From Candidatus Omnitrophota bacterium (lineage in GTDB: Bacteria > Omnitrophota > Gorgyraeia > Gorgyraeales > Gorgyraeaceae): DNA of 58,722 nucleotides. Positions 37,862 to 44,223 of the stretch are shown in pieces. Position 1 is the first letter of the stretch, and each line of letters begins with the position of its first letter. Where the stretch lies: NCBI GenBank assembly GCA_003485765.1, contig DNHS01000011.1:94277-152998 (forward strand), in the 5' to 3' direction. Under the pieces are notes generated by a model. It was not told the origin of the DNA. It made no database searches and saw only the letters and a program-made list of their open reading frames with translations. Position numbers and translations under genes: made by a program.

Positions 37862-38269
37862 ATGGTAAAGATTGGCAATAAAAGCGGTTTTACGCTGATC
37901 GAACTTGTAATGGTTATTGTAATACTAGGGATACTCTCGGCAATAGCTATTCCAAAATTCGCAGACCTCACTACACAAGCAAAAATTTCAGCTGGAAAAG
38001 GCGGGCTTGGAGCAATGCGTTCAGCAGTTGCTATAGATTACGCAAAGAGCGCTACGTCCGGCACAGCTAGCTTTCCGTCAGCAGTTACTACCGCGCTTTT
38101 TGCGGATAGCTTGGTTCCAAAAAATCCAATGAATAATTCTACTAGTATCGCGGCTGTAACTGTTGCTCCTAGCGGCACCGCGACATCTACTGATGGTTGG
38201 TGGTATATATCTGCTTCTGGCAGGGCAGGCGGTTATTCGGACGGAACCCAAGATACTTCTGCCTGGTAA
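37862..38269 (+). CDS. Major type IV pilin (MshA/PilA-like)
   Basis: Class III signal NKSG|FTLIELVMVIVILGILSAIAIPKF; own strong promoter; no Cys; Ser/Thr-rich. Confidence 0.88.
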   Translation: MVKIGNKSGFTLIELVMVIVILGILSAIAIPKFADLTTQAKISAGKGGLGAMRSAVAIDYAKSATSGTASFPSAVTTALFADSLVPKNPMNNSTSIAAVTVAPSGTATSTDGWWYISASGRAGGYSDGTQDTSAW

Positions 38270-38289
38270 AATAGCAGAGATTAGATAGA

Positions 38290-42323: not shown

Positions 42324-42824
42324 ATGAAAAAAGAAAAAGGTTTTACTTTAATAGAAGTAATTATAGTAATAACAATAGTAGGGATTGTTTCAGTTATAAT
42401 AGGATCCATGCTACTGGGGGTTGTGAAGGCATGGACGTTTAAGTTGAACAGGAATGATATATTATGGGACGGAAGGCTTGCTATGGACAGGATGACAAGA
42501 GAAATCAGGACAATAAAAAATTCTACAAGTGTTACTACGGCCTCAGCTGCGCAGTTCAGGTTTACTGATACAGGAAATAAAGACATAACATATAGCCTGA
42601 GCAGTACAAATTTAAACAGGACTGAAAACGGCACTGCGAATTTATTGGCTGCAGATGTTTCAGCGCTTACTTTTACTTATTATAATTCAAGCGATGCTGT
42701 TATCCCCAGTCCTGCGGTCAGTCCATCTGCGACAGATATAAGAAGGGTAAGGATCAATCTTACACTTACAAAGAATGGAGAAAATGTTTATTTACAATCA
42801 GATGCTTCGACAAAGAATTTTTAG
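42324..42824 (+). CDS. Minor pilin (PilW/GspJ-like)
   Basis: KEKG|FTLIEVIIVITIVG; AMDRMTREIR; LTFTYY; VRINLTL. Confidence 0.82.
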   Translation: MKKEKGFTLIEVIIVITIVGIVSVIIGSMLLGVVKAWTFKLNRNDILWDGRLAMDRMTREIRTIKNSTSVTTASAAQFRFTDTGNKDITYSLSSTNLNRTENGTANLLAADVSALTFTYYNSSDAVIPSPAVSPSATDIRRVRINLTLTKNGENVYLQSDASTKNF

Positions 42825-44223
42825 ATTTTTTGCCAGCCCTGGCAGGTCTAAAGAAAAGCCTCGCCGATTCGAGCGGGCACGGTGTCCTGCGCAGGCTGAG
42901 GCCGTTCGGCACGAAATAATTTTAGCGGTCCGCTACGGTTTACGGCTCGTCCGCCTCGCTGGGGCGTCCGAGCGTCTTTTCGTAGGCCTGCCAGGGCTGG
43001 CAAGATATAATATTTCTCGTACCAAAGGCATTTCTTTAGTAGCTGTAGTTATTGTAATGCTGATAGTTTCTACGCTGGCGTTACTGATGGCGTCTTTTAT
43101 GTCGTCCGGGAACATTTCAGCAATCACAGACATGCAGGCGGAGCAGGCGTTATATATAGCATCTGCAGGTATGGAGTGTTATCTTGAGCTTTTAGAGGCA
43201 GATTCAGACTGGTCAACTCCGCCTACAGTTTTTACAAATCAGATATTTGGCGCCGGGACATTTACCATTACTTATGCGAATCAGACAGCAGATTCCATAG
43301 ACATTACCAGCACAGGAAAAGTTATTGGATGGGATGGGAATTCAGTCCAGAGAGTTATTGTTCAGCATGTTACAAAGGAAGCTGGCGCAGGAACAGCGTT
43401 TTCCGATTTCGCGATATTTTATGGAGGGGGAGATGGTACGATCGAAAGCGAAATTAAAAAAGAACAGACAATCACAGGCGATATTTTTGTGAAAGGAAAT
43501 CTGGATATAGGAAAGAATTGCACAATAACCGGTAATGTCTCAGCTACAGGTAGCATAACTGTTGGAAGCGGCACAAATATTTCAGGAAGCACTACCCCAA
43601 ATGCTACTCAGCCTGCAAATCAGCCAACGCTGACTACTACATATTATGATAGTCTGATTACAACTGCTTCTGGCCAGCCAGCTGGGAATAGGACATTCGA
43701 GGCAGAAGCGATTTCAGGAACTGTATATATAAACGGCAATGTGACAATAAAGGATTATATAAACGGCTCAGGCACAATAGTTGCCACGGGTTCAGTTGAT
43801 ATAAAAAGCAATGTAGATATCGGGAGCAATATTACTATTATCTCGGATGGGAGTTTGCTTATGAGGATTAATGGGACAGTAGGCAAGAGTGTGTTTTTTT
43901 ATTCCTCTTCCGATATTGAATTGAAGGCAGGTATTGTTCTTGGCAGCGGAGCTGGTTCAGGAGAAGGTGTGGTTTTATTGTCGCCTGGAGATATCAAGTT
44001 AGGCGATAATACTACTTTGACAGGATTTATATTTGGAGATGACGTAGAGATAGGAGAAAATCTTACATTGACAGGCAATCTTGGCGGCAACAGGCTTGAT
44101 ACTTTGGATGAAGGAGCGGTTATAATTAAAAACAATGCAAAGGTAAATTACGGCTCTATAAATGGGTTCAACTCCAACGCGGCAATAACTATCACAACTT
44201 CTTTATGGCAGGAAACATTGTAG
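42802..44223 (+). CDS. PilX/GspK-like pilin with C-terminal beta-repeat domain; leader carries a 174-bp in-frame insertion
   Basis: TKG|ISLVAVVIVMLIV (no Glu5, PilX-like), QALYIASAG; G.V.I/GN.T repeats; nearest in-frame ATGs upstream of the cleavage site are 42802, 42784 and 42775. Confidence 0.72.
   Translation: MLRQRIFRFFASPGRSKEKPRRFERARCPAQAEAVRHEIILAVRYGLRLVRLAGASERLFVGLPGLARYNISRTKGISLVAVVIVMLIVSTLALLMASFMSSGNISAITDMQAEQALYIASAGMECYLELLEADSDWSTPPTVFTNQIFGAGTFTITYANQTADSIDITSTGKVIGWDGNSVQRVIVQHVTKEAGAGTAFSDFAIFYGGGDGTIESEIKKEQTITGDIFVKGNLDIGKNCTITGNVSATGSITVGSGTNISGSTTPNATQPANQPTLTTTYYDSLITTASGQPAGNRTFEAEAISGTVYINGNVTIKDYINGSGTIVATGSVDIKSNVDIGSNITIISDGSLLMRINGTVGKSVFFYSSSDIELKAGIVLGSGAGSGEGVVLLSPGDIKLGDNTTLTGFIFGDDVEIGENLTLTGNLGGNRLDTLDEGAVIIKNNAKVNYGSINGFNSNAAITITTSLWQETL
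42830..43003. mobile_element. 174-bp REP-doublet/MITE-like element with 21-bp terminal inverted repeats
   Basis: TTGCCAGCCCTGGCAGGTCTA...TAGGCCTGCCAGGGCTGGCAA (1 mismatch); each arm is itself a hairpin; GTAG at 42982; GC-rich; 174 = 58 codons. Confidence 0.7.

Follow-up and report, generated by a model that had tools for sequence, protein, structure and literature searches.

A YfhO-family GT-C enzyme encoded beside the major pilin gene of Omnitrophota type IV pilus operons is a candidate pilin O-glycosyltransferase

Glycans on pilins influence recognition by phages and predators as well as adhesion and the bundling and stability of pili. To our knowledge, the enzymes known to glycosylate pilins are of two kinds, the PglL/TfpO oligosaccharyltransferases and TfpW of Pseudomonas, a glycosyltransferase of the C type (GT-C). 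Here we describe a type IV pilus operon from an uncultured Candidatus Omnitrophota bacterium in which the major pilin gene, pilA, seems on balance to carry its own modifying enzyme, a GT-C glycosyltransferase of the YfhO family. The operon lies in a stretch of 58,722 nucleotides (assembly GCA_003485765.1, contig DNHS01000011.1, positions 94,277 to 152,998), which is called the window below and gives the numbering. A single type IV pilus gene set spans 34798-46780 on the + strand, in the order pilB, pilC, a hairpin, a promoter match, pilA, yfhO, a family 2 glycosyltransferase (GT2) gene, four minor pilin genes, pilMN, pilO and pilP (Table 1).

With respect to the enzyme family, the closest known systems are found in streptococci, where the YfhO proteins PgtC2 (with GtrB) and PgfM1 (with PgfS) O-glycosylate Ser/Thr-rich protein regions (10.1101/2024.05.05.592596; PMC5856776). 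The remark in the first-pass annotation of this DNA that a protein role was not known for YfhO thus no longer holds. PgtC2/GtrB and PgfM1/PgfM2/PgfS have in common with the reading proposed here a PF09586 enzyme, a paired GT2 lipid-phosphate sugar synthase, an extracytoplasmic active site and Ser/Thr-rich acceptors. They differ in being found in monoderm Firmicutes, where the substrates are adhesins, PrsA, penicillin-binding proteins and similar proteins rather than pilins. In addition, the streptococcal GT2 partners are of the GtrB/CsbB type, whereas the Omnitrophota GT2 is DPM1-like, has no transmembrane (TM) segment and carries an HPD motif. Unlike the streptococcal genes, yfhO is fixed beside pilA in this diderm candidate phylum. 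To a specialist, O-glycosylation chemistry by a YfhO enzyme would be no surprise.

In Bacillus subtilis, CsbB and YfhO modify lipoteichoic acid with N-acetylglucosamine (PMC5836110), and the characterised YfhO enzymes of Bacillus and Listeria make O-linkages to teichoic acid. CsbB-YfhO is likewise a GT2-YfhO operon pair, and its YfhO has ~13 TM helices, the last two of which are separated by a large extracytoplasmic domain (PMC5836110). However, the acceptor is a teichoic acid polymer, which is not expected in this diderm with lipopolysaccharide (LPS) genes.

In working mode, the closest system by analogy is pilA-tfpW of group IV Pseudomonas aeruginosa. TfpW is a GT-C pilin D-arabinofuranosyltransferase encoded next to pilA (Kus et al. 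2008; 10.1101/2020.04.19.049825). In both cases the major pilin gene is immediately followed by a gene for a GT-C enzyme. TfpW acts in the periplasm, where it glycosylates the pilin at several Ser/Thr residues using a polyprenol-phosphate sugar donor, and a similar reaction is proposed here. Judged by family description, TfpW belongs to another GT-C family, and it is not reported as a member of PF09586. Its sugar, D-arabinofuranose, comes from a dedicated decaprenyl-phosphate-arabinofuranose pathway and an accessory gene, tfpX, is present; none of these was seen at the Omnitrophota locus. No obvious TfpX-like gene was found near pilA, where the GT2 and minor pilin genes come next. The PglL/TfpO (PilO) pilin O-oligosaccharyltransferases are also often encoded beside pilA and modify pilin Ser/Thr in the periplasm. 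However, these enzymes are members of the Wzy_C family, which transfer preassembled oligosaccharides en bloc from undecaprenyl pyrophosphate, and Wzy_C (PF04932) gave no match at E<=0.01 in the ten proteins scanned here. A pairing of YfhO with a major pilin was not found in the papers searched on YfhO with pilins or pili, nor in those on Omnitrophota pili.

The first-pass annotation had proposed that yfhO and the GT2 gene form a dedicated pilin-glycosylation module, and had named a synteny survey as a check. When one genome per species was scanned with an eight-sequence YfhO alignment as seed, 80 loci with YfhO relatives were obtained. The Omnitrophota clade comprises 24 rows of the YfhO tree; three of these are cut by contig ends, and all 21 testable loci have a pilin gene as the immediate upstream neighbour of the YfhO orthologue, even where YfhO identity falls to ~35%. 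The linkage is thus conserved in relatives. In this clade the median distance from the stop codon of pilA to the codon of the putative catalytic Asp is 151 nt. In the window itself, the order of major pilin, YfhO, GT2 and four minor pilins and their coordinates were confirmed by the layout of open reading frames (ORFs) and by Pfam, as was the tight packing, with intergenic spacings from pilA on of +20, -25, +52, -11, +1 and -50 nt. In one subclade (L019-L022) the minor pilin genes are found upstream of pilC and pilMN directly follows yfhO. Even there yfhO remains behind pilA, which indicates that the tie is to the major pilin.

Adjacency of pilA and yfhO was observed not only in Omnitrophota, but also in some Margulisiibacteriota. 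In this sister group (Saganbacteria/Margulisiibacteriota) the pilA-yfhO unit is direct at three loci (L029, L030 and L042), and the yfhO-linked pilin is homologous, Cys-free and contains a GWxY motif. At two further loci (L027 and L032) YfhO is encoded within the pilus operon. Pilin neighbours were also found for two distant YfhO lineages, L045 and L060, the latter with the order GT2-YfhO-pilins. On the YfhO tree the label 'pilin-linked' requires ~11 changes, compared to 25.8 for shuffled labels, and none of 500 shuffles was as low. Gene order in these genomes thus links the GT-C enzyme to the major pilin gene much more often than expected by chance, and does so over a long divergence. More distant YfhO proteins, with ~25% identity (Krumholzibacteriota and others), still have a GT2 neighbour but no pilin nearby, so that pairing with a GT2 is a general feature of YfhO and the pilin link is confined to certain clades. 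In the converse test, YfhO was encoded downstream of the pilin in only 4 of 80 metagenome pilin loci. All four of these YfhO-linked pilins match PilA beyond the conserved N-terminal helix, and three are among the eight best matches.

Some of these loci are more elaborate. In the Saganbacteria loci L027 (3000-18300) and L032 (500-13000) a larger glycosylation set surrounds pilA in the pilus operon. Both have two tandem YfhO paralogues as well as unclassified multi-TM proteins of 450-555 aa on the opposite strand; L027 adds two GT2 genes and a methyltransferase, and L032 adds one GT2 and a PMT_2-type GT-C. At L045 (5999-11531) three tandem Cys-containing pilins are followed by a distant YfhO and then by a GT2-methyltransferase fusion. 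L024 (4688-12502) harbours two pilA paralogues and then three tandem YfhO paralogues from different subclades. The arrangements at L045 and L024 suggest combinatorial modification.

The survey also bears on the possibility that the YfhO and GT2 proteins form a general periplasmic O-glycosylation system, in which many Ser/Thr-rich envelope proteins are modified and the pilin is one abundant substrate. The general O-glycosylation system of Neisseria PglO can serve as a model for this. Streptococcal YfhO enzymes modify several unrelated membrane-associated proteins, some members of the Margulisiibacteriota clade are not pilin-linked, and the minor pilins of the window are themselves fairly rich in Ser/Thr (15-22%). 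However, yfhO is strictly beside pilA at every testable Omnitrophota locus, even after rearrangement of the operon, and such strict adjacency is typical of the dedicated pilin modifiers TfpO and TfpW. We therefore consider a general system unlikely.

The YfhO protein matched PF09586 with 85.3 bits (cut-off 28.5) over profile positions 71-598 of 835, and the domain was carried by all but a few of 120 homologues among the matches listed. An AlphaFold model made with 54 homologues had a predicted local distance difference test score (pLDDT) of 91.3 and a predicted template modelling score of 0.92. In this model ~13 TM helices extend to residue 507, followed by a mixed alpha/beta domain (residues 509-765, 257 residues) and a final helix (767-792), and the hydropathy peaks agree with this topology. 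When the model was searched with Foldseek, the only significant matches were GT-C enzymes, namely AftD, STT3, ArnT, AglB, AftA, PglB and Pmt (E 1.7e-7 to 5e-3). The structural comparison with STT3 and Pmt that had been suggested in the first pass thus places YfhO in the GT-C fold, with a likeness to the STT3 type at fold level only (TM-score ~0.4). By sequence, the YfhO profile did not match any solved structure. Asp43 is located directly after TM1 in the first periplasmic loop, the periplasmic side being assigned by the positive-inside rule. It is invariant in 54 sequences, down to ~25% identity, and 13 further residues are invariant in the same sequences. Based on the invariant residues, the confident model and the exclusive matches to GT-C folds, the YfhO enzyme looks active.

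A role as a non-catalytic accessory or assembly factor of the pilus, which has only retained the fold, would be compatible with a GT2 partner that is often absent and has an altered DxD motif, but neither feature is specific to such a role. The invariance of Asp43 and 13 other residues down to ~25% identity argues against it, as does the strict conservation of the variant motif of the GT2 itself. We regard a non-catalytic function as highly improbable.

Within yfhO, a palindrome rich in G and C is found at positions 38932-39000 (CTCGACTCAGCGCCTTCGGCGCT...TTCGAGCGAAGTCGAG). Eight residues encoded by a part of this palindrome (VLDSAPSAL region) form an insert that a 78%-identical orthologue lacks and that is placed in a variable, low-confidence loop of the model (pLDDT 59-70). 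The palindrome looks like an element of the repetitive extragenic palindromic (REP) type that is tolerated in frame.

The proposed substrate, PilA, consists of a 9-aa leader and a mature protein of 126 aa. As stated in the first-pass annotation, Cys is absent and Ser and Thr make up 30 of the 126 mature residues. In the globular part Ser+Thr reach 33%, compared to 10.6% in the other ORFs of the window. In the AlphaFold model of PilA (pLDDT 90) alpha1 comprises residues 12-65 and is followed by a loop and a small sheet, and the Ser/Thr-rich stretch SATSGTASFPSAVTT...NNSTS is placed in the loop after alpha1. Thermus and Neisseria pilins carry their glycans in the region after the alpha1 helix. 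Foldseek found no significant structural match for the PilA model. In an alignment of 30 pilins, several columns have Ser/Thr conserved in 83-100% of the sequences. The mean Ser/Thr fraction is 0.28 in YfhO-linked pilins and 0.22 in unlinked ones, and 80% of the linked pilins are Cys-free compared to 17% of the unlinked, both comparisons being uncorrected for relatedness. Predicted tryptic peptides of PilA include SATSGTASFPSAVTTALFADSLVPK and NPMNNSTSIAAVTVAPSGTATSTDGWWYISASGR.

Since the known YfhO enzymes make O-linkages, the pilin is Ser/Thr-rich and Cys-free, and TfpW provides a precedent, O-glycosylation is the likeliest mechanism. Taken together, gene order, sequence, models and the analogy with TfpW make it rather probable that the major pilin is O-glycosylated by the adjacent YfhO enzyme. 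In such a pathway, a polyprenol-phosphate monosaccharide would be made at the cytoplasmic face, by the adjacent GT2 where present and otherwise by another synthase in the genome, and a flippase would move the lipid-linked sugar across the inner membrane. YfhO, with an active site around Asp43, would then transfer the sugar to Ser/Thr hydroxyls after the alpha1 helix of a pilin that would still be held in the inner membrane by its N-terminal helix. PilB, PilC and PilMNOP would finally assemble the glycosylated pilin into the filament. The module proposed in the first-pass annotation is thus partly supported, by synteny, the GT-C fold, the invariant Asp and the best matches of the GT2; the stress on N-x-S/T sequons and a GT2 as constant partner were not supported.

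If this is true, YfhO enzymes would join PglL/TfpO and TfpW as a third class of dedicated pilin O-glycosyltransferases, one that spans phyla, and protein O-glycosylation by YfhO, recently found in Firmicutes, would reach into diderm candidate phyla. In addition, some members of this very large enzyme family, most of which is unassigned, would gain a concrete, testable substrate. The system is small and comprises a 135-aa pilin, one enzyme and, at some loci, a GT2. Omnitrophota are ultrasmall, host dependence has been reported for some of them, and their surface appendages are probably important for the way they live. That pilin glycans shield the cells from phages or predators is speculation.

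The first-pass annotation had also laid weight on N-x-S/T sequons in the pilins. Its hand counts were reproduced, with 3 (2 in the mature protein), 1, 2, 5 and 14 sequons in PilA and the four minor pilins, respectively; after the leader, 13 of the 27 Asn residues of the PilX-like pilin are in sequons. Compared to composition-matched shuffles, only the PilX-like pilin showed a clear excess (14 vs 5.2 expected, p<0.001). Its sequons are directional, with 14 forward and 4 reverse motifs. PilA was marginal (p=0.035), with a count that includes one sequon in the cleaved leader. An excess was found in 3 of 13 PilX-like orthologues, those of the window, L003 and L016. The NNST double sequon of PilA is not conserved, as the positions that define it vary between N/D/S/E and S/A/L/K in the 30 aligned pilins. 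The PilX-like sequons are located in GN-x-T-type beta-helix repeats, in line with the caveat made at first pass that beta-repeat domains favour such motifs. Sequon enrichment was therefore rejected as evidence for N-glycosylation, since NNST is not conserved, the excess is limited to few orthologues and it fits the beta-helix repeats.

These counts bear on the idea that YfhO is an N-glycosyltransferase outside the STT3/PglB family, which acts on the sequons of the pilins, especially of a PilX-like tip pilin, and so coats the pilus tip. The excess in three PilX-like proteins and its directionality are real, and STT3, AglB and PglB are among the fold matches. On the other hand, nine of the 12 other PilX-like orthologues have no excess and nearly all of these come from YfhO-bearing pilus operons, and all characterised YfhO enzymes make O-linkages. 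Moreover, neither an STT3 Pfam match nor a WWD or W-x-D motif (WWDYG type) was found in the YfhO sequence. Together with the repeats and the variable NNST, this leaves N-linked transfer very little likelihood.

At 42775-43030, the PilX-like ORF has ~83 residues ahead of its hydrophobic segment. Its orthologues range from 149 to 486 aa, and the 149-aa ORF of L001 may be truncated or split.

The DPM1-like GT2 had been annotated as a polyprenol-phosphate glycosyltransferase. Its best NCBIfam matches are indeed such synthases (dolichyl-phosphate hexose transferase 4e-20, AglJ 5e-18, PpgS 6e-17), all far below the equivalog cut-offs, and the only PDB match by sequence was the Pyrococcus furiosus dolichyl-phosphate mannose synthase (DPMS; 5mlz, 4e-11). 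No 19-residue window exceeded a Kyte-Doolittle value of 1.17, and the C-terminal TM helices of the GtrB/CsbB type were not found. Because a TM segment is absent, we did not file the GT2 as a member of GtrB/CsbB. In this respect it presumably resembles the DPM1/PpgS type. A canonical DxD is also lacking; HPD aligns with the DAD of DPMS, with the second Asp and the Gln behind it unchanged. Strict conservation of HPDYQYD was seen throughout this GT2 subfamily, which comprises Omnitrophota proteins and a Saganbacteria orthologue (L027, 14177-14917; E 4e-83) encoded in the same slot before the minor pilins. Judged by these matches and motifs, the GT2 probably represents an unusual subtype of lipid-phosphate sugar synthase and is active. 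As a constant part of the module it did not hold up, as it is present in 9 of 22 Omnitrophota loci (~40% of orthologous loci) and differs even between close relatives (present in L049, absent in L003).

The surroundings of the operon raise another alternative, namely that YfhO and GT2 modify LPS (lipid A, core or O-antigen) or another envelope glycan, as ArnC/ArnT or GtrB/GtrX do, and that their place in a pilus operon reflects co-regulation. The operon is flanked upstream by kdsD-kdsC, and downstream by an lpxL-like acyltransferase gene, a fused lptC-lptA and a gene in the lptB position. Genes of this kind usually form one LPS cluster. The combination of a GT2 with a GT-C enzyme follows the logic of ArnC/ArnT, ArnT is among the best fold matches, and distant YfhO-GT2 pairs, for instance in Krumholzibacteriota, have no pilin nearby. 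Against this, yfhO directly follows pilA inside a pilus operon in two phyla, it stays with pilA when other parts of the operon move, and in Saganbacteria there are no adjoining LPS genes. An LPS target or another glycan therefore appears improbable.

Signalling genes also lie between the LPS genes of the window (30536-32038 and 46832-49279), so that a histidine kinase, receiver proteins and pilB to pilP are enclosed by them. At least eight other Omnitrophota loci likewise have an lpxL-like gene behind pilP.

Transcription signals were found on both sides of pilA. The consensus promoter noted at first pass was confirmed as the sole perfect match to TTGACA-16-TATAAT in 9.3 kb, and it is a consensus match only. 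Directly after pilA a second, terminator- or attenuator-like hairpin was predicted. A hairpin of -17 to -32 kcal/mol is located downstream of pilA in all 20 relatives checked, with a T-run behind it in most loci, and it lies partly within the yfhO coding region in close relatives and is intergenic in distant ones. Given its position between pilA and the body of yfhO, the two genes may not form one evenly transcribed message. The hairpin is probably an attenuator that sets a high ratio of pilin to enzyme. It also makes the true start codon of yfhO uncertain.

Several points weigh against pilin O-glycosylation by YfhO. The hairpin just described may separate pilA from yfhO as a terminator would. 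The GT2 is missing from ~13 of the 22 Omnitrophota loci, has HPD in place of DxD and lacks a membrane anchor. A flippase gene was not found in the window, where, as already noted at first pass, there is no small multi-TM ORF resembling GtrA. The contrast in Ser/Thr between linked and unlinked pilins is modest, phylogenetically clustered and uncorrected for relatedness, and therefore only weakly suggestive. As the pilus operon is set between LPS genes, an LPS target is conceivable. Some pilins of this family have no YfhO beside them (L083-L085 and L089). Finally, in the Margulisiibacteriota clade about half of the YfhO genes lack a pilin neighbour, and two of these (L033 and L038) are beside an ABC transporter.

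The remaining genes of the operon are typical of a type IV pilus (Table 1). At 46358-46832, no secretin (pilQ) gene follows the PilP-position gene, and the operon runs directly into the lpxL-like gene. Minus-strand ORFs of the pilus region are short and nested within plus-strand genes, and an Rfam search of 33000-48000 returned no known RNA family.

Table 1. Features of the type IV pilus operon in the window (a slash in a protein motif separates the leader from the following residues)
Feature	Position	Strand	Evidence and remarks
PilB-type assembly ATPase (T2SSE with MshEN)	34798..36477	+	Pfam T2SSE 3.8e-142, MshEN 1.3e-18
PilC platform protein	36485..37702	+	Pfam T2SSF 2.1e-53
Terminator-like hairpin after pilC	37768..37784	+	7-bp stem, 5 GC pairs, then TTTTTC
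Sigma-70 promoter-like site TTGACA-16-TATAAT	37791..37818	+	12/12 consensus match
Major pilin PilA	37862..38269	+	Pfam N_methyl 1.3e-7; 135 aa; prepilin leader MVKIGNKSG/FTLIE
Terminator-/attenuator-like hairpin directly after pilA, over yfhO codons 8-18 (KWGW...AIPIF)	38311..38344	+	14-bp stem and T-run
YfhO-family GT-C glycosyltransferase, 793 aa	38290..40671	+	PF09586 E 4.5e-24
DPM1-like GT2 without TM segment, 228 aa	40647..41333	+	PF00535 7e-22; overlaps yfhO stop by 25 nt
Minor pilin, GspH/FimU-like	41386..41892	+	Pfam GspH 6e-5, N_methyl 1e-4
Minor pilin	41882..42322	+	N_methyl 1.2e-5
Minor pilin, GspJ/PilW/ComGF-like	42324..42824	+	N_methyl 5.6e-9; ComGF and GspJ matches
Large PilX/GspK-like minor pilin, beta-helix-like repeat domain, extended leader	42775..44223	+	KG/ISLVAVV hydrophobic segment without Glu5; weak left-handed beta-helix matches
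PilM-PilN fusion	44244..45782	+	Pfam PilM_2 3e-26, PilN 8e-10
PilO	45790..46353	+	Pfam PilO 2.9e-8
PilP-position small protein	46358..46780	+	CdsD_C and T2SSB C-terminal domain matches; same place after PilO in relatives

One public RNA run was checked and holds none of the window DNA. The closest named homologues of the proteins all come from metagenome-assembled genomes of Candidatus Omnitrophota/Omnitrophica, and near-identical copies of the DNA are present in public sequencing runs of groundwater metagenomes.

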